Shown piece by piece: positions 49,254 through 63,572 of a stretch of 64,000 bases of DNA. This DNA comes from a virus (Duplodnaviria; Heunggongvirae; Uroviricota; Caudoviricetes). The number at the start of each line of letters is the position of its first letter. Position 1 is the stretch's first letter. Where the stretch lies: IMG/VR virus record IMGVR_UViG_3300028898_000252, positions 253,946 through 317,945 of that record; one strand, 5' to 3'. Under the pieces are notes generated by a model that saw nothing but the letters and a program-made list of their open reading frames with translations, did not search any database and was not told the DNA's origin. The translations under genes were made by a program, and so were the position numbers.

Positions 49254-49778
49254 TTATGTGGTTTCGATTTTCTTAAAGTCGTCTCCGAATCGAATGCGCT
49301 CACTTGTAACGCATTCGTCTGAATACTTCGAGAGAATCTTTTCGACGGCATCAATTCGGAGGTTGATTGCCTCGAATGTTTCTGTGTAGCGGTGAACGCG
49401 GATTCTGCGAGCCGTACAGGAATAGTTGTTAATCCCTGAATACTTCAATTCGTTTCTGTAACCAGTCACCGCTACTGGTTTACCAATGGGAGTAAGATGC
49501 TCGACATTTTGCTCGCCGTAACGTTCCCAGAACAAGTTTCGCCAGGAATAGCCTGTGCCGTTATCTCCGCTTCCGTAGAGCAAGTCGACTGCCGACATAA
49601 TGAGGTTGCCGATATCGCTGCTCATATCGTTGCAGTTTTTTGGAATTCGTTTTTCTCTATTCGAGATAGGATAGTCAGCTTCGAACAATGCGTTGTGTTT
49701 CATTGCAATTATATCGAGTGCCAACTCGACGATGGTAGAATCGTCCTCGGGAGTAACCTCCGTGAGTTTGTTTTCCAT
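49254..49778 (-). CDS. cassette hypothetical protein
   Basis: Element, then GAAGGGAG RBS, then ATG. Confidence 0.7.
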   Translation of the reverse strand: MENKLTEVTPEDDSTIVELALDIIAMKHNALFEADYPISNREKRIPKNCNDMSSDIGNLIMSAVDLLYGSGDNGTGYSWRNLFWERYGEQNVEHLTPIGKPVAVTGYRNELKYSGINNYSCTARRIRVHRYTETFEAINLRIDAVEKILSKYSDECVTSERIRFGDDFKKIETT

Positions 49779-49928
49779 TTGAAATTGTTTCTCCCTTCTG
49801 TCTATCTCTTAGCACAATCCACGAAGGTTTATTTACCTTGCGAGAAGTATGCCAAGGGAAAGATAGAAAAGAAAACGACCCTGAGTGTATCAGGGTGGTT
49901 CTCTCGAAACGATCAAAGCGAGTTTGAT

Positions 49929-50168
49929 TCAGGGTGCCCGCTCGAAAACGGTTTCATCGTTGCGTCGAATTCGGAACTCTGCTGCGCTCAGGTGAGCGAA
50001 AGAACCACCGCGCCCGAATTCGGGGTGGGTTCCGTTGACGAGTTGTTTTGCGTAGCGAGCATCCTGCGCGTCGCGAATGGTTGCAAAATCCAACCATTTG
50101 CCATCGCGCTTGATTTGCGCAACGTCATATTCCTTGAAGGTGTATTCCGCGGGCTGTGTTTTGTGCAT
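49929..50168 (-). CDS. cassette hypothetical protein
   Basis: Element, AGAGGA RBS; terminator-like hairpin downstream. Confidence 0.7.
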   Translation of the reverse strand: MHKTQPAEYTFKEYDVAQIKRDGKWLDFATIRDAQDARYAKQLVNGTHPEFGRGGSFAHLSAAEFRIRRNDETVFERAP

Positions 50169-50249
50169 AGTTTGAATTCCTCTCTCTGTGAATATGGTTT
50201 ACCACAATTCTTGGAGGTTTATTTACCTTTCAAGAAGTATGCCAGTCGA

Positions 50250-50684
50250 TCAGTCTTCGCTGATATCCTCCTCTGCCATATCTTTCAGATATGATTCGAA
50301 CGAGGGAGCATTCCAATCACATCCGTATTCGTAGTCGCCTCCGCCCTCGTAATCTTCTCGGTTTTCTCGCCTTTTGATGCGATCGAGACATTCGTTGAGC
50401 GTATACTTGCGAAACGACCTGTTTTTTTCTTCGGAGTAGTTCCGCTCTTCGATTTCCAGCGAACGAAAATCGAGTTCAGACTCTTCGGTTTTGAGCCACA
50501 TTTCTTGCTCGTCTTCGAGGGTTTCGTCGATTCCCTCGGCGATTGCTTGCTTCTCGGTAACACCTTGCGGGTTGCTGAATCGCAAAGTCTTTTCTCTGCG
50601 GCTGTTACCGAGAATGCGGTTAAGGGTAAACCTATCGTCAATATCGAGACGAGCAACAAAACCGCGGCGATGGTTGGTTTTCAT
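50250..50684 (-). CDS. cassette hypothetical protein (MKTNHRRGF family, acidic)
   Basis: Element, GAAGGA RBS. Confidence 0.65.
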   Translation of the reverse strand: MKTNHRRGFVARLDIDDRFTLNRILGNSRREKTLRFSNPQGVTEKQAIAEGIDETLEDEQEMWLKTEESELDFRSLEIEERNYSEEKNRSFRKYTLNECLDRIKRRENREDYEGGGDYEYGCDWNAPSFESYLKDMAEEDISED

Positions 50685-50769
50685 TCTGTTGATCCTTCCG
50701 TGGTTATCTCTTACCACGTTTGGCTCTGAATTATTTACCTTGCAGGGACCGTGCCATCGCGGATTCTGA

Positions 50770-50816
50770 AAATAAAAAATGGGCTACTCGGGTGCTGGTT
50801 AGGCACTCGGTAGCCC
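50770..50816 (-). terminator. intrinsic terminator
   Basis: GGGCTAC.GAGTGC...GCAC.CGAGTAGCCC stem followed by ATTTTTTATTTT. Confidence 0.65.
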
Positions 50817-51003
50817 GTGAGCGGAAACGGAATCTCCGTTTATTTGTGGATTGAAGGGAGCACGTCGCGCGCTCAACCTCGGTTGAAGGGTAGGAAACAA
50901 CAGCAAGAGCGACGAATAGGGTTGCGATTGTTTAGCTCCTCTCTGTGTTTAGGTTTAGCACACCCTTGAAGGAATTATTTTCCTTTCAAGAGATATGCCA
51001 GTG

Positions 51004-51129
51004 TTAGCGGTTGCCGTTTTTGAGGTTGAGGGTTTCGGTTGCCTTTGCGATCATTCCACCAGCGACGAGCGCGGCGAACATCATCACGAAGGCGAAAGCT
51101 GCCCCGTTGGCGAACGTGTTAGCGATCAT
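51004..51129 (-). CDS. 41-aa hydrophobic peptide
   Basis: MIANTFANGAAFAFVMMFAALVAGGMIAK..., AAGGA upstream, stop abuts the next element. Confidence 0.45.
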   Translation of the reverse strand: MIANTFANGAAFAFVMMFAALVAGGMIAKATETLNLKNGNR

Positions 51130-51259
51130 GGGTTTGTGTGGTTTCCTTTCGCTGGCGACGAATCACCGCTGCAACCTCAACGATGCTGTAGGTTGTGCGC
51201 GCGATGGCGAGAATCAACAGAACGATCATAGAGAAATGGTTGTCGATGGAGGGTTCCAT
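51119..51259 (-). CDS. 46-aa hydrophobic peptide
   Basis: Element, AGAGGA RBS; MEPSIDNHFSMIVLLILAIA... Confidence 0.5.
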   Translation of the reverse strand: MEPSIDNHFSMIVLLILAIARTTYSIVEVAAVIRRQRKETTQTHDR

Positions 51260-51338
51260 TTGTTTTCCTCTCTGTGAGTATGTCTTAACATACCATTGAA
51301 GGATTTATTTACCTTTCAAGAGGTGTGCCAAGGTTTCG

Positions 51339-51569
51339 TCACTGGTCGGAAGGAAACCAACCCTTCACAACGGCGTTGTGGGCAATTCCAAGACGAAACA
51401 CCTGGGATCGTACTCGAATGCCGCTCGAAGCATTGAACACCTTGATTGAGGCATTCAGGGCGTTTGGGGCGGCATTCAGAGCAGCGGCGAACGCCTCGTG
51501 TTCGGTTGCTCCGAAACCGCTAGCGCTCAGTCCCGTTTGATTACGGGTCCATCGAAATTTACCTTGCAT
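51339..51569 (-). CDS. cassette hypothetical protein
   Basis: TAATG-coupled to the upstream ORF. Confidence 0.55.
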   Translation of the reverse strand: MQGKFRWTRNQTGLSASGFGATEHEAFAAALNAAPNALNASIKVFNASSGIRVRSQVFRLGIAHNAVVKGWFPSDQ

Positions 51570-51781
51570 TAGTTCATCACCCTTTCAGGTGCGGTTGAGG
51601 GATCGTGACCGAGGTTGAAAGCGGAGCGAAACAACTGTGCTTGCTCGCGCGTATCCGTGAAATGATCGAACACGGCCCCAGTCACGTCGGAGCGAAAACG
51701 GACCCTCCACATTTCACGCGGCGGGCGTTGGTTGCGAAGAAAAAACGCCTTCAACTTTTCGAGAAGTAACTTGTCGAGCAT
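51569..51781 (-). CDS. cassette hypothetical protein
   Basis: GGAGG RBS after the element. Confidence 0.6.
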   Translation of the reverse strand: MLDKLLLEKLKAFFLRNQRPPREMWRVRFRSDVTGAVFDHFTDTREQAQLFRSAFNLGHDPSTAPERVMN

Positions 51782-51928
51782 GACAACCTCCGTTCTGTTT
51801 GACCGTTTCGAATTCCCTTGTGAGTATGTCTTATCACACTCAGTTAAGGTTTATTTACCTTTCACAAACCATGCCAAGCACAGTTTATGAAAACTTTGTT
51901 TTCAAGACCTATGCCAGACTTTTGCCGC

Positions 51929-52312
51929 TCATGCAAACTTGCATGCCGACAAGGTTTTCATCACGGAATACATCCTGTCGATGACCGCGGGGACCTTTTT
52001 GTCGTTGTCGTGGTAAAACATGTTTGCGGCGAGAATAACATTTCTAATCGCCTTGCGCTTGTTCATTCCGACCGCGATATGCACCGCACCGCCACGAATT
52101 GCGATTGAACACCTCCAGCCGTGATCGCGTACGGCATCGAAAACAACATTGACAGGATTGACGCGATTGTTATTCAGCAGGTCGACCAATTTTTCGACCT
52201 TCGCGCCCCCGCTGTAAACCTCGATAACGGCGGCTTCGAGCAAGGTATTGAACCTTTGCTCTCTTGCTTCGATGGCTCGAAAGAATGCCTTGAATGATTC
52301 GAATTGTTCCAT
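51929..52312 (-). CDS. cassette hypothetical protein
   Basis: AAAGGG RBS; start placed at MEQFES. Confidence 0.6.
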   Translation of the reverse strand: MEQFESFKAFFRAIEAREQRFNTLLEAAVIEVYSGGAKVEKLVDLLNNNRVNPVNVVFDAVRDHGWRCSIAIRGGAVHIAVGMNKRKAIRNVILAANMFYHDNDKKVPAVIDRMYSVMKTLSACKFA

Positions 52313-52494
52313 TGTGAAACCCTTTCGTTGGAGAATGACAGCCGCAGAAATAGGATTTGCACCTACAGTTTCCTCTGTTTTGCAGAGGTTTTGGCCACGA
52401 TTCGGCACGGGACCTATTCCCGTTCTGCGGTATAGACTTGTTAACACAACCTCGAAGGTTTTATTTACCTTTCAAGAGGTGTGCCAACGAAGGT

Positions 52495-52707
52495 TTAGTC
52501 GTGATACCAAACATCCTCGCCGTGAATGTTTTTCGACGGAAAAACAACCGTATCCGTGTCCTCGTTGTGCTTCGTGACAGCGAACATCACCTTTCGCTGA
52601 GCGTTGCGCAGCACCTTGCGAGCAAAGCGCTTGAAACCATTGTGAAAGTGGCGATGGTGGGAGTCCTCGCTGCGAGCGGTGAATCCTCGACGGTGGTTCG
52701 TTTTCAA
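52495..52707 (-). CDS. cassette hypothetical protein (MKTNHRRGF family, basic)
   Basis: TTG start after GAAGGGAG; N-terminus matches 50250..50684. Confidence 0.6.
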   Translation of the reverse strand: MKTNHRRGFTARSEDSHHRHFHNGFKRFARKVLRNAQRKVMFAVTKHNEDTDTVVFPSKNIHGEDVWYHD

Positions 52708-52844
52708 TTCCGTTCTCCCTTCTGTCTAGGTCTTAACACACTCTATCGTGAATTATTTTCCTTTCACGAATCGTGCCAAGGTTGACCAAGAGGCTGTCTC
52801 GGTGGGTTGAGGCATTCAGAATTAATTTCAAAATCTGTGCCGCG

Positions 52845-52874
52845 AAAATAAAAAAGCCCCGATTCGCTCGGGGC
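52845..52874 (-). terminator. intrinsic terminator
   Basis: GCCCCGA-GCGAA-TCGGGGC followed by TTTTTTATTTT. Confidence 0.75.
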
Positions 52875-52912
52875 GTGGCGGGTTTGGTTATGTATCCAAA
52901 CCAATTGGTTTC

Positions 52913-53287
52913 TCAATCCTCGTTTTCCGACGAGAACGCGATCGAACGAATTCCGATCTCATGGTAGTTTTTCCATGAGAATGTCAGCCGCTTCGAATCG
53001 TCATCGCAGCCTTTCAAAACGACGTGCGTGCAATCCCCCGATTGCGTGACGACCGAAGCGACCTCCCACAATTGCGAGCCGTGCGCTCGCTTTCCCTTCA
53101 CTTCGAGAATGTCACCAACCTTGACGCGCGAAAGGATGATCCACACGGGATCGCGTCGCGTTCGGTCCGAAACTTGAAATTTTCGTTCGGTCAAGTCATC
53201 GTAGAGGCGGCGAGCCTTCGTGTTTTCATTCGCCCACGCGCGAAACGAACCGATGATTGCCGAGAGGATATCCTTGTTGTTGCTCAT
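52913..53287 (-). CDS. cassette hypothetical protein
   Basis: Purine-rich leader; terminator downstream. Confidence 0.65.
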   Translation of the reverse strand: MSNNKDILSAIIGSFRAWANENTKARRLYDDLTERKFQVSDRTRRDPVWIILSRVKVGDILEVKGKRAHGSQLWEVASVVTQSGDCTHVVLKGCDDDSKRLTFSWKNYHEIGIRSIAFSSENED

Positions 53288-53335
53288 GTTTCTTTTCTCT
53301 TTTCTTTTCGTTGAAGTTGATTGAAGGGTTGGTTT

Positions 53336-53710
53336 TCAGAGAGAGAGGGCGAAAGCGATATCGAGAGCAACAGGGGTTTTGTTTTCCTCCGTTACTCCGT
53401 TGTACTTGATCGCGTGTTCCGCGAGGTTGTAGTGGTCAATCAATTCGACCTCGCAAGGTAGGGGAGTGTTGCAGGCGAGCCGCGTAATCGGAGGCATTTT
53501 TTTGTCTCCGAAAAGTTTTACCAACAAAAACTCTGTTCCGTATTGACCAGTGGAGGCGGAACTTGCGGTCAATTGGTAGACCGCAGAAACCTCTTTGCGG
53601 CCTTTCCGAAATGACAGCAAGAAAAACCTTGCAACCTTGACAAACACCGTAATCGAACAACCGAGTGTTTCGGTGTTGATTCGATCACCAACCTTGAAAA
53701 GATGGTTCAT
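53336..53710 (-). CDS. cassette hypothetical protein
   Basis: Start placed at MNHLFKVGD after AAGGG. Confidence 0.6.
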   Translation of the reverse strand: MNHLFKVGDRINTETLGCSITVFVKVARFFLLSFRKGRKEVSAVYQLTASSASTGQYGTEFLLVKLFGDKKMPPITRLACNTPLPCEVELIDHYNLAEHAIKYNGVTEENKTPVALDIAFALSL

Positions 53711-53866
53711 TCGTTTTTTCCCTTGTTGCTTGACGAAAACCTTGTCGGCGACTGGCTTATCGACAATAATTTTCTTGGGGTTGCGAGACAGGGTGATTCC
53801 TGGCCAGTTTCTATCTCTTATCACAGCTTTCAGCATTGAATTTTCCTTTCAAGCGCTATGCCAAGA

Positions 53867-54049
53867 TTACCTTTTCCGTTGTTTGATTTTCGAACCAGAG
53901 GGCACCACGAGAAACCATTCGAACCTGTTGACAATTGCATTCCAAACCTTGTATCTCCGAATCACTCTCGTGTAGAGAGCACCTTGACGCAGGGTTTCGA
54001 GGTATGAGTCGAACGGACCCAGGTGGTTTTCTGAATAACAGTCGCCCAT
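53867..54049 (-). CDS. cassette hypothetical protein
   Basis: GAAGGTG RBS; stop abuts the next element. Confidence 0.55.
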   Translation of the reverse strand: MGDCYSENHLGPFDSYLETLRQGALYTRVIRRYKVWNAIVNRFEWFLVVPSGSKIKQRKR

Positions 54050-54136
54050 TCGTTCACCTTCCCTTGCTGGCGTGTCTACCTCATATCACGATTGATTCTG
54101 TTTTATTTTCCTTGCAGGGATCATGCCAGCAGTGGA

Positions 54137-54355
54137 CTACTTCGAAACCTCAACTCCAATAATCAAAACCATCGGAGGCTCGCCTACAGAAGTCTCGAAA
54201 CCAGAAACTTTCGTCTGGAAAACTTCATCCTTCTCTGGATTATCCATGAGAGCTTCATTCAGTCGGAGGATCAACCTTTGCGCTTCATCACGCGAAAGGC
54301 CGATAACCAAACGATTTTTGAAAATCTCGTCTGCGGTTTTTTCCCAGTGCGCCAT
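54137..54355 (-). CDS. cassette hypothetical protein
   Basis: AAGGA RBS; start placed at MAHWEK. Confidence 0.6.
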   Translation of the reverse strand: MAHWEKTADEIFKNRLVIGLSRDEAQRLILRLNEALMDNPEKDEVFQTKVSGFETSVGEPPMVLIIGVEVSK

Positions 54356-54569
54356 GATCTTTTCCTTTCCGTGGTTATGATCTAACACATTCAGCTCTGA
54401 ATTATTTACCTTGCAGGGATCATGCCAACCACGGGAGATTGAGAATTATTTTCAAATTGCTGCGGCACAAAAAATGCAGGGCCAAAAACGATAAAAGGGC
54501 AACCCGCTTGTTAAAGCGAAGTTGCCCCTTTGGGTTTATTTACTTTGCAAACCGTGTGCCAACGTTTAG

Positions 54570-54644
54570 CGTCTCTGATAGGACTTGAACCTATGACCTA
54601 CCGCTTAGAAGGCGGTCGCTACTATCCAACTGAGCTACAGAGAC
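54570..54644 (-). tRNA. tRNA-Arg(UCU)
   Basis: GTCTCTG/CAGAGAC acceptor stem; ACCGC-CTTCTAA-GCGGT anticodon arm; GGTTCAAGTCC. Confidence 0.92.
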
Positions 54645-54688
54645 AAAGCGTCTCGTAACGTTACTGTGCGCCGCTTACACTACGGTTT

Positions 54689-55056
54689 TGAGGCCGCGGA
54701 GAGTCGAACTCCGTCTGCAACGTTTCCGAGACTGAAACAGTCTACAGGAGCACTGTTTCGATGTGCAGTCGATACGCAATCCGTCTCGTAACGTCATCGC
54801 GACGTTGGATTGTCCACTATTGGCAATCAACCTTTCGAGGTTGACTCTCGCTCTCGCCGCGAGAAGGCTAGTGGTGCTGAGAGCATATAATACCGACATA
54901 TCCCCTCGGTTAACGGGTTGACTGAGCGGTTTAACTGTTTAACCTAACAGGTTACCCTGTGCAGGATTCGCACCCGCATATCTCAGTCGGTGTGATGGTG
55001 GTTTGTATTGTTTCACTAGCATTCAGTAACCATCGGTACCGAATGCCAGCGGCCAC
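54689..55056 (-). ncRNA. ~370-nt structured RNA with a tmRNA-like 3' end
   Basis: 3' end ...TGTAGAC...GACGGAGTTCGACTCTCCGCGGCCTCA; 5' GTGGCCG pairs 6/7 with CGGCCTC; many internal hairpins; no G3-U70 pair and no recognisable tag peptide. Confidence 0.45.
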
Positions 55057-55197
55057 GATTTATTTAACCCAACACCGAGCATTGTGGCTTGTTTGGTATT
55101 GGACCACGGAATTATTCTCCGTGGATTTGCTTTCCTTAAATGGTGGAAAGCACGACAGCGTTTACGACTCCATACTATATGTCGCCTCTAGCATGAA

Positions 55198-55262
55198 TGG
55201 TGCTCTCATATGGACTCGAACCAATGCCTAGCAGCGCGGTTAAGCGCTCTAGGTATGAGAAC
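55198..55262 (-). ncRNA. D-armless tRNA-like RNA ending ACCA
   Basis: GTTCTCA/TGAGAGC acceptor; 10-bp hairpin with 6-nt loop; GGTTCGAGTCC; ACCA. Confidence 0.6.
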
Positions 55263-55385
55263 ATGTTTTATGTTAAGGAATCTATCGTTTTGACGTTGTT
55301 GCCCCGATCGCCTCGCTCTCTCTGTCTACATTCTAGCGCGACCGAGCAAGGTTTATTTACCTTTCAAGTATCGTGCCAGGGAAAA

Positions 55386-55456
55386 GGGTACCGCCGCGGG
55401 AATCGAACCCGCTTTAGACGTTCTAGCCAACGTCTAAATCTCCAAGGTAGAACCCC
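55386..55456 (-). ncRNA. D-armless tRNA-like element
   Basis: TTTAGACGTT-GGCTAG-AACGTCTAAA hairpin directly followed by a perfect T-arm GCGGG-TTCGATT-CCCGC; acceptor stem weak. Confidence 0.5.
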
Positions 55457-55519
55457 ATAGTTTTATCGGTGCTTGACTAGAGCGCCCGCTATGTTGTCTA
55501 ACTTTAGGTAGCGGTATAG

Positions 55520-55602
55520 TGCCAGCAACGGGACTTGAACCCGTATGCCCTTGCGGACGGCGGATTTTGAATCCGCTGCGTATTCCATTCCGCCACGCTG
55601 GC
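55520..55602 (-). tRNA. tRNA-Leu(CAA)
   Basis: GCCAGCG/TGCTGGC acceptor; GCGGA-TTCAAAA-TCCGC; long variable arm. Confidence 0.93.
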
Positions 55603-55949
55603 ATTTGTTCTGCAATCTCGTTTGCAGAGGACGATACCGAGACACATTCTAATATGCGGCTCGATATTAACACGCTGGGATGACACAATGATCATCCGTG
55701 TGGTACAGCTTAGTTTGATATGTGTACCTAGTTCACAGCCCGCGGTTTTCATTGGCTGCAAAACAAGTTGTGCCAGTCACTTAGCCCGTGTTTGCAGGAT
55801 ACGCGCACGCCGACTAGCTTACGCTCGCGTTTCCGACGTATGGGATATATTACCGTTCACTCGCTTTCCTTTTCGTTGCTGCCCGCCCCATGAATCTCTC
55901 TTACCACACCCGAGCAAGGTTTATTTCCCTTGCAAGCGCTATGCCAGGG

Positions 55950-56189
55950 TCAGAGCGCGACCACCGCGAGGGTTTCGCGACCGTTTTCCCACGGGCAGAG
56001 CCACGCTTTCGCGTAGCCGTTGGGTGCTTGCACGATCACGGGATTACGGGGCGACGCCCGTTTCGCGCGGCAAGCGCGGACGATTTTGTCCACCCCAGAA
56101 TCGATAGAATAGTGAGTCACGAATGTAGCTGCCGTTTCGTTGAACTCGAACACCACTGCTTTCGAATCGTTCACTTTTGCATCCTCCAT
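55950..56189 (-). CDS. cassette hypothetical protein
   Basis: Lies between two elements; stop 3 nt from the next element. Confidence 0.6.
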   Translation of the reverse strand: MEDAKVNDSKAVVFEFNETAATFVTHYSIDSGVDKIVRACRAKRASPRNPVIVQAPNGYAKAWLCPWENGRETLAVVAL

Positions 56190-56254
56190 CCCCCATAATC
56201 TTATGTTAGTACAACCGAGCAGGGTTTATTTACCTTGCACAAGCCATGCCAGAG

Positions 56255-56617
56255 TTAGACCTTGGCGGAATCCTCCGCTCGACGAATAACCCACCATTCG
56301 GTTCCCGCGCCGTCGCGGTCGATTTCACCCACAAGGATGAATTCATTGCTGAGCATATCCATAAACACGCCCTCCCATGCCCCGCGGGTTGTTCGAACGG
56401 ACACACCGAGGATTCTGGAAAACTCAGCCGCAGCCGCAGATTTTCTGACTACGGACGAAAGATTTGTCTTCCGAACGTCGATCTTTCCGCCGCCGCTCAA
56501 TTCGAGCTCGAAACCCTCTTGGGTTTGCTCGATCGCAGTCACGGGAATGAATTCGAGATTCAACCGTTGACGAGCGACGATATTCAAATCGAGACCATCC
56601 GACACAATGCAGTCCAT
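56255..56617 (-). CDS. cassette hypothetical protein
   Basis: AAAGGG RBS; stop 3 nt from the next element. Confidence 0.65.
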   Translation of the reverse strand: MDCIVSDGLDLNIVARQRLNLEFIPVTAIEQTQEGFELELSGGGKIDVRKTNLSSVVRKSAAAAEFSRILGVSVRTTRGAWEGVFMDMLSNEFILVGEIDRDGAGTEWWVIRRAEDSAKV

Positions 56618-56710
56618 TGTTTGAAACCCTTTCTTCGTTGGTGTGTTCTCTGTATAGCAGACCCTAGCAAGGTTTATTTACCTTGCAATCGGTATGCCAA
56701 GGATGATTAG

Positions 56711-56781
56711 TAGGTCCAGAAGGAATCGAACCTTCGTTAACTGGTTAAAAGCCAGCTACTCTACCATTGAGTTATGGACCC
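56711..56781 (-). tRNA. tRNA-Lys(UUU)
   Basis: GGGTCCA/TGGACCT acceptor; GCTGG-CTTTTAA-CCAGT; GGTTCGATTCC. Confidence 0.93.
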
Positions 56782-57130
56782 TTAGAGCGCCGCTGTTTAC
56801 CAACGATTCCCCGTATGCGGGGCAACCTCGGGACAGCGGGCGGTTTTGCACCATTCTTTTATTCGTTTTAGGCCGAATCACACCCGTTAGGTAGCTATCG
56901 GCCTATCGTTTACGACGATACATCAGCGTTTCCTCTTCGCTATATTATTAGAACCTACGCATGCGCGCGGTAGGCTTATGGGTTCGAGGTAGTGAATGCG
57001 GAATGACCCGCGCCCGTATCGTGTTGGCAGCGTGCGGTTTCGCTCGGTATCCGCTGCTAGTTTTACCGATCGACTAGCAACCGCTCAGTGGAGCGGCTGA
57101 CAAGGTGTGTGTAGCACGACTCGGCAGGGT

Positions 57131-57469
57131 TTATTTACCTTGCACCGTCTGTGCCAGCGGGACGCCGCCCGACCACGGGGCATCGTCGATCATTTCGAAA
57201 ATGGTTTGAATTTCCTCGACTGAAAGAGTGGTGTCGTGATACCACTCCGTCAACCTTCGGTCGAAAGCGTCGGCAAGGTCGCGGGTTTCAGCGAATTCGA
57301 ATTCGACCTCTTCGAACATCGAATTGTAAAACCTCGGAGGTTGCTCGCCATTTGCCGCGCGGTGTTCGATGATCGCCTGCTCGCATTCTCCCACGAATTC
57401 GGCGAGTTGTTCTCGCGAATAACCGCGGAGTTTCAGCGTTTGCAATTCTGAGAGATTCTTCGTCGACAT
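57131..57469 (-). CDS. cassette hypothetical acidic protein
   Basis: AGAGGAG leader; reads into the next element (LAQTVQGK, stop inside AAATAA). Confidence 0.6.
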   Translation of the reverse strand: MSTKNLSELQTLKLRGYSREQLAEFVGECEQAIIEHRAANGEQPPRFYNSMFEEVEFEFAETRDLADAFDRRLTEWYHDTTLSVEEIQTIFEMIDDAPWSGGVPLAQTVQGK

Positions 57470-57769
57470 TTTCTTTCGTTGCTCCTCTCTGTGGGTATGT
57501 CTTACCACACCCTTGAAGGAATTATTTACCTTGCAAGCGGTGTGCCAAAAAAAATAGGCTTGGAATAGATCCGAAGCCTCTCACCATTCGTTATATCGCC
57601 TTCAACCGCAAGTTAACTTAATAACTCGCTGAATGGCCGCACTCCCAGGCATCGCGCTATGGACTAGCCTTATGGTTGCGCTTTGTTATGGCCGCTTGCA
57701 CGGTTTGGTTGAAGCAATGCCGTTATCCAACGGCGGTATTGGCTTGACAGAGAATCCTGTTCTCTGTCA

Positions 57770-57846
57770 TGGTAGGCGTAAATGGACTCGAACCATTGAC
57801 CCCACGGTTATAAGCCGTGTGCTCTAACCGACTGAGCTATACGCCC
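57770..57846 (-). tRNA. tRNA-Ile(UAU)
   Basis: GGGCGTA/TACGCCT acceptor with encoded ACCA; CACGG-CTTATAA-CCGTG. Confidence 0.92.
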
Positions 57847-58037
57847 AACGAATGCGGCCTCGCCTTATTCAGCGCCCGCGGTGAATGCTAACCAGCTTGT
57901 CACGGCCAGTGCATTATTTTACCTGCTTTCCGTATCGTTGCGGGTTGAGGTTTTGAGGCAACCTTGCTCGTTGCCCCGTGAGTATGTCTTAGCACGACTC
58001 GGCAGGGTTTATTTGCCTTGCACCGTTCGTGCCAGGG

Positions 58038-58346
58038 TTACGCCAGCTTCGACCACGCCAGCGCGAACAAACGCACGGCGAAAGCCAGGGCGAAAACCGC
58101 AGCGCTCACCCTTGCAATCCCCAGCGCGTTTTTTGACGTTCCGTAACCGTACTCGGACGCAAGAAAACTGTTTGTCAGCCTCTCAGCGATCATGGAAACC
58201 ACGAAAAGCGATCCAAACAACAACAGGTGTTGTCCTGCGGAGAGCGAGAGAAACATCCCGAAAAACGTTCCGATCGCGCCCGAAGCGATGGCGAGCACAA
58301 GCAACACAGCCGCCGCGACTGCGGCGAAAACCTTACCAAAGGTCAA
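58038..58346 (-). CDS. small multi-pass membrane protein (start uncertain)
   Basis: Three hydrophobic stretches; stop 3 nt from the next element. Confidence 0.55.
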   Translation of the reverse strand: MTFGKVFAAVAAAVLLVLAIASGAIGTFFGMFLSLSAGQHLLLFGSLFVVSMIAERLTNSFLASEYGYGTSKNALGIARVSAAVFALAFAVRLFALAWSKLA

Positions 58347-58348
58347 GG

Positions 58349-58729
58349 TTACGACCTTCGCGAGTGTGACGCGCGCTGGAGAATCGGAAGACCAAGAACA
58401 CCACTCGGTCCAACCTTTGCAAACGCATCGGTTTGCTCGTTGCCGCGTTCGCCAGGGACGAAAAGCGTCACCTCGGCATAGCGGTTGCTGTGCCCCGCGC
58501 AGCACTTGGTTTCACTCGAAACCGTTGCGCGCCAGTCAGAAGCGGAAAAAAACTTTTCCGTTTCCTTTCCCGCAGCGTCGTGTCGGATCACTTCGACCGC
58601 GTAGCGCTCCAATTGGAGCCGTTCGCGGAGTTCATCGGCGTGCATTTCCGCCGCTGTGCGTGTGTCGAGCTCCATTCCTTCATCGAAGGAAACATCGCCA
58701 CTGTCTGAACCATTCACTTCGATCGTCAT
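58349..58729 (-). CDS. cassette hypothetical protein
   Basis: GGAGGT RBS. Confidence 0.6.
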   Translation of the reverse strand: MTIEVNGSDSGDVSFDEGMELDTRTAAEMHADELRERLQLERYAVEVIRHDAAGKETEKFFSASDWRATVSSETKCCAGHSNRYAEVTLFVPGERGNEQTDAFAKVGPSGVLGLPILQRASHSRRS

Positions 58730-58831
58730 TGCCTACCTCCATGTAGGGTTGCTAGAGGTTATCTCCAGCAACAACTTTTGAATAACACAACCCTCGAAGG
58801 TTTATTTACCTTGCAGGGATCATGCCATTCT

Positions 58832-58892
58832 TGGAGGGCTTGGGAGAATCAAACTCCCCGCAAAGTTTTTGCTTTGCGAACCATTAAGCCCT
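58832..58892 (-). ncRNA. D-armless tRNA-like RNA
   Basis: AGGGCTT/AAGCCCT stem followed by CCA; CGCAAAG-CAAAAA-CTTTGCG; T-arm GGGAG-TTTGATT-CTCCC. Confidence 0.6.
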
Positions 58893-58897
58893 TGCGG

Positions 58898-59380
58898 TCA
58901 CTCCGCTAGTGCCGCCTGAATCTCGGAAAGTTTCTTCTCGAAGGTGAAACGAGTTTCGAAACGCTCGCACACTTCGCGCAATTCCTCGAAACCACTCGCG
59001 ATTTGTTCGAGCGAATCGGGGTCAACCTCGTTGGGCGCGGTGCGGTCGACCAGCTTCGCATACTCGGTCAACTCGATTCCGAATTGAGCGCCGCGCCAAT
59101 CTCCGTTAGCGTCGCGGTAGTTGAGCACACGCTTTTCGAGCGCGTACATGATCGCGCCGTCCACATCACCCGCCTTTTGCGCGGTGCGCAGCTCGACCAG
59201 CTTCCGATACGACGCGCGCAGGTTTTCCACACCCGCGACGATCATATCAAACTTCTCGTCGACATTCGCGTTTCGAAACGCCGCCAAGTTTTCGAGCGGC
59301 TTGTGCTTGCACGCGTCGAACGAGCGCGTGGCTTCGAGAAGAGCCGCCTTATCTGCAACAACAACAACGTTCGTTCCCAT
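58898..59380 (-). CDS. cassette hypothetical helical protein
   Basis: Follows an element; start placed at MGTNVV. Confidence 0.65.
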   Translation of the reverse strand: MGTNVVVVADKAALLEATRSFDACKHKPLENLAAFRNANVDEKFDMIVAGVENLRASYRKLVELRTAQKAGDVDGAIMYALEKRVLNYRDANGDWRGAQFGIELTEYAKLVDRTAPNEVDPDSLEQIASGFEELREVCERFETRFTFEKKLSEIQAALAE

Positions 59381-59501
59381 TTTTTTCTTTTGCTCCAATG
59401 TTTGAAAAACCGTTCACTTGCTGTGTGAGCACCGTTGCTCACACTCTCTACTTAGCACAACTCGACAAGGTTTATTTACCTTGCAGGGTTCATGCCAAGC
59501 G

Positions 59502-59582
59502 TGGCACTTCCGCCGAGGGTTGCACTCGGCATAGCTATTGCTTGTTAGCTTTAGCTATCGTGTCCTGGTGACACCGAAAGTG
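59502..59582 (-). ncRNA. aberrant cloverleaf tRNA-like RNA
   Basis: CACTTTC/GGAAGTG followed by CCA; GTGTC-ACCAG-GACAC; ATAGCTA...TAGCTAT; GCCGAG-TGCAACC-CTCGGC. Confidence 0.6.
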
Positions 59583-59612
59583 TTTTGTTCTGCCCCTTTC
59601 GGGGCGAGGGTT

Positions 59613-60236
59613 TCAACCCTCGGCGGTTTCGTCGTCGGTCGCAGCGTCGAGCGCTTCGAGCGCGGGCGAATTGCTCAGGTCGGTTGCAGCCGCGCCAGCA
59701 AACCGCGACGGAGGCGCGGAAAGCGCGACGACACGCGCCGTGCGCGCAGGCTTCGCGGGCTTGGGAGCCTCGGGAGCCTTGGGTTTGATTCCGAGCATCG
59801 CAGCGACCGAGGTTTGCGGCGCGTTGGGATTGATTCGCGCGATTCCCGCGCACTCCATTGCAGCGCGGAAGGTTTCGATCAGTGACAGCGCCTCGATCGC
59901 GCAACCCGCGCTATCGCGCGAGTGGAGCACGAAAACGTTGTCGCGACCGATGACCTCACTGCCGTACACGACCTCGCCGCGAACGATGCGAAGCAACAGC
60001 GTCGAGCCCGCCGTGTCCGAGTTTGGCCCGCCGCGCGCGGCGCGCACGCCTTCGAGCAGCGCGAGCGCCGAGCCGCCTTCGTCATCGGTCAAGCGGAACA
60101 TCACGGGCTCTTGTGGCTCGATCCACAGATCAGACTTCGACGCGTCGCCGCCCTCGCCGCACTGCTCGCGAACGTGCGCAACGAGCGCCGCGAGAACCAT
60201 TCCAGCGACAACCGAACGAACAGAATTCTTGCTCAT
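59613..60236 (-). CDS. cassette hypothetical protein with Pro/Ala-rich tail
   Basis: Follows an element; start placed at MSKNSV. Confidence 0.65.
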   Translation of the reverse strand: MSKNSVRSVVAGMVLAALVAHVREQCGEGGDASKSDLWIEPQEPVMFRLTDDEGGSALALLEGVRAARGGPNSDTAGSTLLLRIVRGEVVYGSEVIGRDNVFVLHSRDSAGCAIEALSLIETFRAAMECAGIARINPNAPQTSVAAMLGIKPKAPEAPKPAKPARTARVVALSAPPSRFAGAAATDLSNSPALEALDAATDDETAEG

Positions 60237-60313
60237 GTTTTTTTCTCTCTTTTCTTTCGTTTTGTGAACTCGCGAGCACCGCAACCGTGCGGTGCATCAT
60301 CTCTTGTGAATCT

Positions 60314-60362
60314 CTCTTAGCACGACTCGGCAAGGTTTATTTACCTTGCACCGTCTGTGCCA
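60314..60362 (-). promoter_or_regulatory. representative element: sigma54 -24/-12 box plus downstream extended -10-like box
   Basis: TGGCACAGACGGTGCA AGGTAAATAA ACCTTGCCGAGTCGTGC TAAGAG; GG-N10-GC spacing. Confidence 0.8.
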
Positions 60363-60532
60363 ACCTAACAACCATCGAAACTCACGTTCGCAGGTTAGGT
60401 GGGATGGTACGAATGTTGTTTGTTCGTGCCGTCCCGTCTACTCTGCAACCGATACCCTGTCATGTGCTCTGTCTAGCACACTCTCGGAAGGTTTATTTAC
60501 CTTTCAAGTATCGTGCCAGGACAGTTTCAGGC

Positions 60533-61054
60533 TCAGTCGTCATCGGCAGCATCGAAAAACTTGCCGATCGCGAGGAATTCACCGCGAGTGCAAGCGGCGT
60601 GCCACTCAGGATTCGAGCCCGTCCCGTTTGGAATCGGGCTGAAATTCAATTTCTGTACCATCGTGCGGCGTGCTTTGAATTCGGCGAATCCTGGGAATTC
60701 AACCGAAGCAAGCACCGCGCCGTTGTTTTTCGACCAGTCGTAAAAGTACCGTTGTTTTCCGACGGCACCGTCGTCGGCCAGTGGGGCAACAACGAGACAG
60801 CTTGTTCCTCGCGCCCCGCGTGAGGAATGATTCCCCAGCAAAATGAATCGCCGCTTGTTGATTCGCACAGTTGAATACTTTGGCGCTGCTTTTGCAGCAA
60901 GCACCGTATCCCGCTGAAACTCGCTGAATTCATCGTAGTCAGGCGAATCCCGCTTGATTCGCCCCTGGCGAGCACCTTCGCCTGCGGTACAGTCAAGGTC
61001 GAGCCTTTCAGGCTCGACAACATTGTCATTGTCATTGTCGTTTTCGTTTGCCAC
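60533..61054 (-). CDS. cassette hypothetical protein
   Basis: AGAGGAG RBS and GTG start (ANENDNDND...). Confidence 0.6.
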   Translation of the reverse strand: MANENDNDNDNVVEPERLDLDCTAGEGARQGRIKRDSPDYDEFSEFQRDTVLAAKAAPKYSTVRINKRRFILLGNHSSRGARGTSCLVVAPLADDGAVGKQRYFYDWSKNNGAVLASVEFPGFAEFKARRTMVQKLNFSPIPNGTGSNPEWHAACTRGEFLAIGKFFDAADDD

Positions 61055-61297
61055 TCGCTGTGCTCCTCTCTGTGAATCTCTCTTAGCACGACCGACCAAG
61101 GTTTATTTACCTTGCAGGGTTTGTGCCAACAACCTTGGTCGTTGGAGTTTCGAGCGAAACGCGGCGATCGTCCGTCCCGCCCTGTGTTCTCTGTCTAGCA
61201 CAACCCAAGGTGCTTTATTTACCTTGCAAGCATCATACCAGGGTTGGGCGTTTGGCGCGGTGCGAGCCTCTATCGACCGCGCGTACACGCGTGCGTA

Positions 61298-61369
61298 GCA
61301 TAAACCATGCCAGGTAAGACTACCTAAAAAAACCGTTGGCATGATACTTGCAAGTGGCATGGTTTATGC
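61298..61369. promoter_or_regulatory. inverted pair of sigma54-like boxes, plus a third box, at the head of the array
   Basis: GCATAAACCATGCCA (61298-61312) and TGGCATGGTTTATGC (61355-61369); TGGCATGATACTTGCA at 61337-61352. Confidence 0.65.
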
Positions 61370-61485
61370 CTTCGCGGGGCAACCCTCAACCGTTACCATA
61401 TATGGCAGTATGAAACACCTAAACATTTAGTGAAATGAAATTTAATGAAACTAGGTATGAATTTTATTTGTACTAAGGTTTAGAG

Positions 61486-61959
61486 TTAAACTTTGTATTT
61501 TATAAAAAGAGTTTCGAGTTTTGTTTTAAGTTCTGGATAATGATAAAGGAAACTTTTATTCTTTTTTGGATCAAGGAGTCTTTCGTAAATTTGTTTGTAT
61601 GAGTTTCTCTCAAGCCACGAGAGATAAGCTGAAATAAACTTATCATCTTCGAGATAGTCAAACAAAGTGACTTCAACCATTTCAAAAAATGTTTCTTTGT
61701 CGAGTTTAATTGTTTTGGAGCATATTAGAGCATAATATGCACAAAGTTTTTTGATAAGAAACTCATCATTTTCAAAATCAAGAACTTGTGGTTTTTGGGC
61801 TTTGGGAGAGGAAGTATTCCAGTTTTGGGAAACAATTATTGTCGATTGTGATTCATGTGCGGTAATTGTGTTATAAGAAGGGTCAAACAAAATGGCACGG
61901 TAATCACAACCTGTAAATGTTTTAACAAAGGTTTTGAGTTCTTTGTTTTCAAGTTTCAT
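61486..61959 (-). CDS. hypothetical protein
   Basis: AAGGAGG RBS before MKLENK. Confidence 0.65.
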   Translation of the reverse strand: MKLENKELKTFVKTFTGCDYRAILFDPSYNTITAHESQSTIIVSQNWNTSSPKAQKPQVLDFENDEFLIKKLCAYYALICSKTIKLDKETFFEMVEVTLFDYLEDDKFISAYLSWLERNSYKQIYERLLDPKKNKSFLYHYPELKTKLETLFIKYKV

Positions 61960-62121
61960 TGTTTTGTTGCCTCCTTTTTTTGATTGTTTTGTTTCAACCC
62001 AAACTCTTATTGTTTTGGGTTGATTTATCTTAGCCGCAAACCTTATAAAAGGTTTGGGATTTAAGCTTTGAATTAATATGATAAACATTTAGTATTTTGA
62101 CCCTCCCCTCCCCTTAAAAGA

Positions 62122-63300
62122 TTAATTCTTTTTAGAGTTAAGCTGCGAAAGGTTTTCTTCAAGGGCTTGGTCAATAACTTGCAAAGTATCTCTAAACTGT
62201 TGAGTAAAACTATCAGTAAGGGCTTTGAATTCTTTCTTGAGATTCACATTATCGTTTTCGGCGGAATACCATTCGATTCTGAATCTATCAATAACTTCTG
62301 AATACTGGGAAAGGAATTCAAGTCCTTCGCAGATTGATTTATCAAACACTTCAATTGGATAGTTTCTCAGGTCGAGGCCGTTTGCCTTGAACAAGTTTTC
62401 GTAGGCAAACTTTGCAAGAAACTTTCCAATGAAGCCGAATTGATCTGTAACCTCTTCTTCGTTGTTTATTTCAATAGAAGGAATATAAACAGTCCATTTA
62501 TCAAGTGGAGAAATAAGAGTTTTGTTATCGTCTCTTGCCGATGATCCTGCGTCGGCGAATCGCATAATAACAAATGGTCCATATTGACCATCCCCAGAAT
62601 AAACTTGATAACCAACCATTCCTTTCGGAAAAGGATTCTTTCCTCGCTTTGCCGCGACAGAATAGTTGATTCCAAGGTTCATGTTTCGATAATCAGACCT
62701 TCTTTTCGATTCTTTCCATTCTGCCTTTTTAATATTGTTTTCAATTTCGATTTGCTGAAGGTGTTTGTTGTACAGATTCATAATCTCTTCATCGGCATCA
62801 ACTTCAACAAAAAGACCATCCTTTTTAAAGGATTTTCCTTTGTAGAAAACAGGAGGCAAATAAACATTACTTGTTTGAATGTGTTCAGCTGCAAACTTTT
62901 TTTCTTCTTTAAGATAGTAGGTGATAACAAGACTGTCATTATTCAAACCATCATAGTAATATGAATTCATTTCAACATTCACAATTGGATTTGATGGGTC
63001 GATAATATATTTCTCTGTGACTGAAATCCAGCCATATTTGTTGACGATTGGTTCTTGTGCCTGAAACATTTCAAGATACTTTTTTTGGATTGCCTCGAAT
63101 TCTTCTTTCTCGTGCAAGTAATACACAGGGGAATTTGAACATGTTTCATAGTTTTTCAATTCCTCTTCGGTCATTTCGTTTCTGCGGCGAACTCTCTTTT
63201 CGACAAGTTCGCTGTAATTCAGTTTTTTTCTCAATTCCTCGTGAGCTTTGTATGCAGGGTTTTCATCCGTTCGGAACACACTCAACGACTTTGCGACCAT
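62122..63300 (-). CDS. hypothetical protein (392 aa) under the outlying element
   Basis: GGGAG RBS; long ORF. Confidence 0.75.
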   Translation of the reverse strand: MVAKSLSVFRTDENPAYKAHEELRKKLNYSELVEKRVRRRNEMTEEELKNYETCSNSPVYYLHEKEEFEAIQKKYLEMFQAQEPIVNKYGWISVTEKYIIDPSNPIVNVEMNSYYYDGLNNDSLVITYYLKEEKKFAAEHIQTSNVYLPPVFYKGKSFKKDGLFVEVDADEEIMNLYNKHLQQIEIENNIKKAEWKESKRRSDYRNMNLGINYSVAAKRGKNPFPKGMVGYQVYSGDGQYGPFVIMRFADAGSSARDDNKTLISPLDKWTVYIPSIEINNEEEVTDQFGFIGKFLAKFAYENLFKANGLDLRNYPIEVFDKSICEGLEFLSQYSEVIDRFRIEWYSAENDNVNLKKEFKALTDSFTQQFRDTLQVIDQALEENLSQLNSKKN

Positions 63301-63386
63301 GTTTTTATTTCTCCCGAGTGAATTGGTTTTTGTTGCCCCGATTATCGCTGCGGTGAGCCTCTATCACTCGCGCGATCACGAGCACA

Positions 63387-63435
63387 CGCATAGCACAATC
63401 CCCCGCGGATTATTTACCTTGCAACGACCGTGCCA
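63387..63435 (-). promoter_or_regulatory. outlying 26th copy of the element, upstream of the 392-aa ORF
   Basis: TGGCACGGTCGTTGCA AGGTAAATAA N17 TATGCG. Confidence 0.8.
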
Positions 63436-63572
63436 GCTACCGAGGGCAAGAGGATTCGACCCCGCAAAGTTTGCAGGTTTCGCGAGCCTTTCAGTGTAAC
63501 GGTTACCCGAAACAAACGATCAAACAAGAAAAACAAAAGTGTAATGAAATTAAATCATATTAATTTCAATAG

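Follow-up and report, generated by a model that had tools for sequence, protein, structure and literature searches.

Among the described systems that come close to the locus considered here are the PeSLs and PmSLs of T4-like phages, i.e., short conserved regulatory repeats which are interspersed between small, mostly orphan genes in plastic regions of the genome. Related phages differ at these regions by swaps and deletions of gene cassettes with the joints residing in the repeat, and the repeats carry sigma70 early promoters in the case of the PeSLs, or Mot middle promoters in the case of the PmSLs, behind a terminator-like stem-loop (PMC2839356, PMC4122927).

The window analysed here, i.e., the whole stretch of 64,000 nucleotides, comprises bases 253,946-317,945 of a virus record that is 390,884 bp long and ends in direct terminal repeats, and contains an array of 26 elements in which a pair of sigma54-type boxes, a core and a further downstream box (box 2) are joined in fixed phase. 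This three-box element is real, conserved and unusual, and literature searches found no description of sigma54-type phage promoter arrays. As the leading reading, if one that falls somewhat short of being probable, we propose that each cassette is headed by one sigma54-type promoter with two accessory DNA boxes in fixed phase, and that the resulting units recombine at the core in the manner of PeSLs.

Genomic setting of the array

The phage genome has a G + C content of about 30% with a single island of about 50% at 49.2-63.5 kb of the window, which includes four tRNA genes. The first element of the array, e63435 (elements are designated by the window coordinate of their position 1; Table 1), heads two AT-rich orphan genes coding for proteins of 392 and 200 amino acids (window 61486-63435, minus strand), and since the genes behind it share the composition of the remaining genome, the promoter family reaches slightly past the GC-rich block. 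For the 392-aa lead protein, relatives were absent from Pfam, PHROG, the PDB and the Atlas, and attempts to assign a function failed. Likewise, ten island proteins had neither Pfam nor PHROG matches, and no candidate for a regulator of the boxes was found, the island proteins being without relatives in Pfam, PHROG, the PDB or the Atlas. A scan of the island revealed few terminators between the cassettes.

Table 1. Coordinates of the array in the window and of the parts of one of its elements, e60362 (positions are counted along the element).
Feature	Window coordinates	Strand	Remarks
Whole array	49254..63450	-	26 co-oriented tripartite elements ahead of small ORFs, tRNAs and small RNAs
Position 1, elements 1-13	49854, 50244, 50756, 51000, 51330, 51876, 52486, 52778, 53863, 54128, 54427, 54561, 55378	-	
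Position 1, elements 14-26	55946, 56251, 56699, 57156, 57547, 58034, 58827, 59497, 60362, 60518, 61128, 61240, 63435	-	
-24 box TGGCA of e60362	60358..60362	-	Positions 1-5
-12 box TGCA of e60362	60347..60350	-	Positions 13-16; G14/C15 correspond to -13/-12, exact GG-N10-GC
Core AGGTAAATAA of e60362	60337..60346	-	Positions 17-26; loop and left arm of the inverted repeat AAGGT/ACCTT
Predicted sigma54-type start of e60362	60336	-	Position 27; A in 20/26 copies; predicted from the -24/-12 geometry
Variable spacer 2 of e60362	60324..60335	-	Positions 28-39; sequence near saturation, length invariant
Box 2, GTGCTA, of e60362	60318..60323	-	Positions 40-45, i.e., +14 to +19; TGnTAAGA reaches 60314
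CAC of e60362	60306..60308	-	Positions 55-57, weakly conserved; complement of GTG (40-42); would be a candidate for a second start with box 2 acting as a -10 box

Anatomy of the element

With position 1 taken as the T of TGGCA on the minus strand, the sequence AGGTAAATAA is found 37 times in the window when at most one mismatch is allowed, as compared to 10.95 +/- 3.03 times in shuffled sequences, and its exact copies are confined to the minus strand and to the region from 49.8 to 63.4 kb. A looser search of the window yielded the 26 full elements, all on the minus strand, which align (MAFFT) without a single gap over the 100 columns from position -14 to position +85. Their overall layout is TGGCA-N7-TGCA, followed by the core AAGGTAAATAA at -10 to -1 with respect to the predicted start, a variable stretch of 13 nt, and GTGnTA at +14 to +19. 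TGGCA at positions 1-5 is present in 25-26 of the 26 copies (42-43 of 43 including the relatives described below), with a pyrimidine preceding it and a pyrimidine and a purine following it. T13 is found in 25 and G14 in all 26 copies, C15 in 17 copies with A in the other nine; A16, A17, G18 and G19 are kept in 25-26 copies, T20 in 20, AAATAA at positions 21-26 in 25-26 with A23 being invariant, and C29 in 25. Two purines are conserved at positions 36-37, and in box 2 the counts are 23/26 for G40, 24/26 for both T41 and G42, and 25/26 for both T44 and A45. Further downstream, position 49, with which the putative -10 hexamer would end, is G in eight, C in eight, A in seven and T in three copies, and there is a weak conservation of C-A-C at positions 55-57. 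Upstream of the element, nothing is conserved from position -14 to position -1 (pairwise identity 0.28).

When compared to the sigma54 consensus YTGGCACG-N4-TTGCW, both the GG and G14 are present in 26/26 copies and the GG-N10-G(C/A) spacing is exact in 26/26. Secondary positions of the consensus also fit (Y at 0, Y-R at 6-7, T at 12-13, A at 16), the agreement with the RpoN consensus thus spanning about ten positions in base as well as in spacing. Strict sigma54 matches number 28 in the 391-kb genome, 23 of which lie inside the island, against one in the reversed-sequence control. Since the GC at positions 14-15 then corresponds to -13/-12, the core at positions 17-26 comes to lie at -10 to -1 and the predicted +1 is position 27. 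The placement of the core at about -10 to -1 of a sigma54-like promoter, as proposed by a sequence-only reading of this DNA, is therefore borne out by the geometry of the 26 aligned copies.

Promoters of the sigma54 class are silent until opened by an ATP-driven activator. In the phage genome, searches for Sigma54_DBD, for Sigma54_activat (enhancer-binding protein) and for a multisubunit RNA polymerase gave no matches. As the upstream genes abut the elements, ending 3-14 nt ahead of them, no space is left for an enhancer. Two further features of the class, i.e., an AAA+ enhancer-binding protein in the phage and an enhancer site upstream of the element, were thus not seen; a host activator working from solution is possible. 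With respect to other transcription machinery, the search for a T7-like RNA polymerase (PF00940) gave no match in the phage and is uninformative, since none of the control genomes was matched either. The sole sigma70-family gene (genome 77,260-78,171, plus strand) codes for a protein of 303 amino acids whose similarity to RpoD/RpoS/SigF-type models is limited to regions 2 to 3.0; region 4 was not detected, and no class of promoters in the genome could be assigned to this sigma factor. A crude k-mer search revealed no clear dominant alternative promoter motif before genes elsewhere in the genome, and by-eye inspection for an antisense promoter on the plus strand gave no fit.

The conserved block at positions 13-26 (e.g., window 60337-60350, minus strand) contains TAA at positions 20-22 and again at 24-26, i.e., in two frames, and the TTGAA variants add a stop in the third frame, TGA at 13-15; by virtue of these stops the block could double as an all-frame translation stop between cassettes. 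Among the 26 elements, e54561 (window 54480-54561, minus strand) has the sigma54 boxes and the near-core sequence AAGTAAATAA, lacks box 2 and leads directly into a strong terminator hairpin just past tRNA-Arg. It has the appearance of a left half that became stranded, or of a site giving rise to an RNA of about 50 nt, and in its counterpart on the related contig L040 (around 810) the core itself is deleted. In addition, -24/-12-like sites devoid of core and box 2 are found at window 51916, 60604 and 60660 (minus strand) and at 1591 and 1647 of the related contig L029. At least the sites at 60604 and 60660 are intragenic, the sequence TGGCACGCCGCTTGCA at 60604 being a perfect consensus, and the pair is kept in L029; they may represent intragenic sigma54 sites or chance matches held by coding constraint.

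Relatives and parallel arrays

In INPHARED, DNA matches to the island are confined to the tRNAs. The strict composite pattern has no match in other viral contigs, and a related-locus search via two island proteins returned none. By contrast, the strict pattern identifies 29 loci in metagenome contigs, which fall into three groups. Group A consists of eight short contigs (L027, L028, L029, L033, L034, L035, L040 and L045) with a G + C content of 43-58%, which stem from activated-sludge and freshwater samples, and these are true relatives of the island: GTGnTA is found at positions 40-45 in every full copy, and the offsets of core and box 2 are unchanged. Pooling the phage's own copies with those of the relatives gives 43 non-redundant copies, with T44/A45 present in 42 of them.

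Group B (L019, L023, L024, L026, L030-L032, L036, L037, L041-L043, L048, L049 and L051) surfaced via the 26-nt search pattern and is irrelevant to the element. What the pattern hits here is the conserved end of a gene, gggataTGGCATCAGCTATGCAAGGTAAATAA, which is present in Colwellia genomes as well as in large contigs (up to 491 kb), and since the sequence diverges right after the TAA, it has to be regarded as a coding coincidence and not as a promoter. Group C comprises unrelated single sigma54-like sites which have the core but no box 2, e.g., L018, L020 and L044, and whose number is about that expected by chance. As a ribosome binding site and an ATG follow at once in these three, their start must be near position 27.

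A scan of 185,579 bacterial genomes likewise revealed only 13 single core sites, roughly the number expected by chance, and no array; a few of the 13 resemble ordinary Firmicutes sigma54 promoters with a ribosome binding site and an ATG directly after them. It follows that sigma54 promoters are not generally extended by this core, in line with the premise of the sequence-only reading that the region from -10 to -1 is normally poorly conserved.

A looser scan of viral sequences gave six loci. Amongst the viruses, two unrelated uncultured large phages, IMGVR_UViG_3300028591_000072 and IMGVR_UViG_3300030330_005454, neither of which represents a described or studied family, have sigma54-type arrays of their own. 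In both, as in the island, copies of TGGCAY-N6-TTGM(A/T) are arrayed in one orientation ahead of small genes, and the -12 box is followed immediately by a conserved sequence that is specific to the lineage. In contrast to the island, this sequence reads TATAATTGTAGTGAACAATTAAA in one phage, the other having AGGGAAATAAATCTTG or AGATGGATTC, and both lack GTGnTA at +14 to +19. The array on the 302-kb contig consists of about 18 copies, with ATG codons that are not preceded by a Shine-Dalgarno sequence and a palindrome, AATTGT/ACAATT, near +1, and that on the 42.5-kb fragment of seven copies, three of which are tandem copies spaced by 61 nt; a GTAAA sequence situated 12 nt upstream is conserved in this array.

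Phase between the core and box 2

The sequence-only reading had counted the combination of core and downstream box in five copies; it holds more broadly, namely in 25 of the 26, the exception being e54561. The dependence of the boxes on each other is nested. Composites of core and box 2 were accompanied by the sigma54 boxes in 45 of 45 cases and lacked them in none of the 45, box 2 is always accompanied by the core, sigma54 boxes together with the core only are found in e54561, and sigma54 boxes alone are found at 51916, 60604, 60660, L040_810 and L034_1347.

The sequence separating the core from box 2 has diverged to a large extent. Between copies, spacer 2 (positions 30-39) shows an identity of 0.38 as compared to 0.27-0.28 in unrelated flanks, and it can be fully replaced even between orthologues with left halves that are 97-100% identical (L033_795 versus e51330). 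Its length, in turn, is constant in 42 of the 43 copies, and indels are encountered directly past box 2, such as the gap of 1 nt found in e51000 and the 4 nt inserted in L029_1131 when compared to e61128; the start codons are spread over positions 72 to 118. A spacer that is diverged and yet fixed in length, with indels just downstream, argues for a spacing rule between the promoter or core on the one side and box 2 on the other, and reading at the DNA level by one complex fits this spacing better than an RNA motif does, even though common descent and gene conversion could account in part for the invariance. The centres of the core and of box 2 are about 21 bp apart, i.e., two helical turns. 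Judging from established polymerase footprints, +14 to +19 would lie within the span of DNA that is covered by an open complex; a sequence-specific reading of either -10 to -1 or +14 to +19 by a sigma54 holoenzyme is not known.

Tests for conservation at the RNA level

A conserved leader hairpin to which box 2 would contribute the 5' arm was also considered. This candidate had to be rejected, as the native folds (-3.44 kcal/mol) were hardly more stable than those of chimeras (-3.18 kcal/mol, p = 0.68) and no covariation was found; in the corresponding pairing register (i + j = 91, hairpin 2), a signal was absent. GTG at 40-42 does pair with CAC at 55-57 in 18-24 of the 26 copies, which amounts to a 3-bp stem with a 12-nt loop, and for the leaders from the predicted +1 onwards RNAalifold gives 0 pairs and hence no consensus structure.

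The hairpin of the inverted repeat AAGGT/ACCTT around AAATAA (hairpin 1) forms in most copies, mainly from conserved bases, and sometimes extends into the -12 box and the spacer. In a control with left and right arms taken from different copies, the native hairpins were little more stable than the chimeras (-8.24 versus -6.97 kcal/mol, p = 0.025), and covariation in a fixed register was 0.192 versus 0.145, a value reached in one of 500 shuffles, with 61% of the cells pairing. However, its stability exceeds the island background only slightly (-8.2 versus -6.3 kcal/mol), and the outer pairs are lost in natural chimeras and orthologues. Given the modest covariation, the near-background stability and the lost outer pairs, hairpin 1 was rejected as a strongly selected structure. 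Masking of the Shine-Dalgarno sequence by a 5' ACCUU was dismissed as well, as it applies to only four of 14 cassettes. Since box 2 is found ahead of RNA and protein cassettes alike, it does not serve as a translation signal either, and in the light of no conserved fold, no covariation and no general masking of the Shine-Dalgarno sequence it has to be considered a linear sequence signal.

Recombination at the core

Comparison with the relatives shows that elements have been exchanged within the core. L029_1733 is composed of the left half of e60518 and the right half of e58827, each at 100% identity, with the joint inside the core AAGGTAAATAA; L028_270 joins e54427-left to e54128-right in the core, which amounts to the deletion of a cassette; and in L028_724 a left half identical to that of e54561 is joined in the core to a protein leader. 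These joints offer a further explanation of why the core is so uniform. Searches of the phage genome for tyrosine and serine recombinases (Phage_integrase and Resolvase) gave no matches. An integron-like cassette array with attC sites was therefore rejected, given the absence of a recombinase and the only modest covariation of hairpin 1.

Alternative explanations

The resemblance of GTGnTA to the upstream half of an extended -10 box counts against reading the element as a single promoter, and the sequence-only reading had proposed two overlapping promoters with the core doing double duty. In this explanation, which we hold to be quite unlikely, box 2 would be the extended -10 of a sigma70-family holoenzyme with either the host primary or the phage sigma factor, the core would be an activator box at its -35, and the sigma54 closed complex and the second promoter would compete or fire sequentially. 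It is true that T39, R40, T41, G42, n, T44 and A45 match TRTGnTA exactly and thus represent, up to this point, a Gram-positive-type extended -10 with the TG one base before the hexamer, that 17 nt (positions 27-43) lie between the end of the core and the TA in 25 of the 26 copies, and that a constant spacer length suggests one rigid reader. C55/A56 are moderately conserved at a distance that would suit a start site, every Shine-Dalgarno sequence lies downstream of position 57, and regions 2 to 3.0 of the phage sigma are the parts that read the -10 and the TG. However, the figure of 17 hinges on the choice of the hexamer inside a conserved block of 14 nt, the distance to the TG being 14 nt, and the element is ungapped over about 57 nt regardless. 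Of the proposed TGnTAAGA box, GTGnTA is conserved and AGA is present in only 14-16 of the 26 copies; T at -7 (position 49) occurs in 3/26 copies (3/43 including the relatives), so that a TAnnnT hexamer is not seen although A45 is conserved, and hexamer positions 3-6 are only weakly conserved. The place of the -35 reads AAATAA, and a sigma70 consensus scan called box 2 in no copy. In the remaining 376 kb of the genome, GTGnTAAGA is found 12 times on both strands as compared to about 13 expected, never before genes or in a promoter context, i.e., it is neither enriched nor placed like a promoter there, and box 2 never occurs apart from the sigma54 boxes. The parallel that had been drawn to T4 middle promoters and their MotA-type activator does not apply, since MotA_activ and AsiA had zero matches in the phage and the core does not contain TGCTT. 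Moreover, a sigma factor that is devoid of region 4 would not require the core, and the double-duty idea thereby loses its reason. What persists of the claim is a second box at a strictly fixed distance; it is unlikely that box 2 is a -10 for which the core supplies the -35 or activator box, and a core serving two overlapping promoters is a weaker reading than a single promoter with accessory boxes. We consider it extremely unlikely that sigma70 uses other parts of the element in competition with sigma54, with TTGGCA as -35, a 16-nt spacer and AATAA(A/T) in the core as -10. Although the consensus scan calls TTGGCA or CTGGCA-N16-AATAAT in seven copies and A23 is invariant, T is found at position 0 in only 13/26 copies and at position 27, where the -7 T would be, in only 6/26, and both the invariant TG-AAGG (positions 13-19) and box 2 are left unexplained.

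Very unlikely, too, is a promoter that is not of the sigma54 type at all, where a phage polymerase or factor would read the long element (positions 12-29 contiguously plus the flanking boxes), perhaps as an extruded hairpin like in N4 early promoters. The contiguous conserved block of 18 nt and the inverted repeat AAGGT/ACCTT around AAATAA would suit such a reader, and Pfam can miss divergent phage polymerases, the PF00940 control search having matched no control genome. Against this stand the agreement with the RpoN consensus in base and spacing at about ten conserved positions, the occurrence of the same -24/-12 pair with a different downstream sequence in two other phage lineages, and a hairpin that is barely above background (-8.2 versus -6.3 kcal/mol) and loses its outer pairs in natural chimeras. 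At the level of RNA, box 2 might act as a linear motif in every island transcript, 14-19 nt behind the 5' end, be it a processing site, the site of a phage RNA-binding protein or an antitermination signal, and conservation of the core would then solely reflect melting, the choice of the start site and its use as a recombination joint. This is a possible explanation, if an unlikely one. Box 2 lies inside the predicted transcript of protein and RNA cassettes alike, it is specific for the strand as well as for the island, and the scarcity of terminators makes long read-through RNAs in need of processing plausible. On the other hand, there is no conserved fold around box 2, the strict length of spacer 2 with indels downstream is better suited to a spacing rule on DNA, and neither an RNA-binding protein nor a nuclease was identified among the island proteins by Pfam and PHROG; we recognise no resemblance of box 2 to boxA or nut-type motifs.

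A proposed single promoter with two accessory boxes

In the favoured reading of one sigma54-type promoter per cassette, the host RpoN holoenzyme would presumably read each -24/-12 promoter, with the core AAGGTAAATAA spanning the region to be melted (-10 to -1) and setting the start at about position 27, and with GTGnTA at +14 to +19 lying inside the span of the open complex. Both boxes would be read as DNA jointly with the promoter complex, either by the polymerase itself or by a phage factor. A factor of this kind, which would turn all 26 promoters on or off together, is attractive since the phage has no recognisable enhancer-binding protein and the elements leave no room for an enhancer. The repeated units would at the same time serve as short-homology recombination joints, as the T4 PeSLs do, thereby shuffling cassettes and helping to keep the core uniform.

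A more specific proposal, which we put forward as a speculative possibility with the odds clearly against it, is that core and box 2 together form the docking site of a phage factor acting on the poised sigma54 closed complex. The factor would either replace the AAA+ activator and render the promoter enhancer-independent, or hand the site to a second polymerase form starting about 30 nt downstream, so that the 26 cassettes would be switched as a block.

With 26 back-to-back sigma54-type promoters, no room for enhancers and no activator gene, the phage must solve the problem of promoter opening somehow, and two extra boxes in fixed phase are the obvious place to seek the solution. If the boxes recruit a new activator, a repressor or a second polymerase form, this would constitute a new mode of sigma54 control and provide a compact, orthogonal and switchable promoter; if they recruit no such factor, the element would still be a clean natural instance of PeSL-like cassette shuffling on a different promoter class.

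Comparison with known promoter classes

Like bacterial RpoN promoters, the island elements conform to YTGGCAYR-N4-yTGCA with GG-N10-GC spacing and have mostly a purine at the predicted +1. They are unlike them in being present as 26 phage copies with no room for an enhancer and no enhancer-binding protein encoded by the phage, and unlike sigma54 promoters in general they have an invariant block at -10 to -1 and a further box at +14 to +19. With extended -10 promoters (TRTGnTATAAT) and T4 middle promoters they share the match of box 2 to TRTGnTA and a conserved upstream box at a fixed distance, whereas the remainder of the -10 including the -7 T is missing and the core resembles neither a MotA box nor TTGACA. 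When compared to the PeSLs, finally, the promoter of the island elements is of the sigma54 type (-24/-12), there is an extra downstream box, and the inverted repeat overlaps the start region (+1) and has no U tract; as in the PeSLs, however, promoter-bearing repeats are found between small genes, with indels and swaps that are joined at the repeat.
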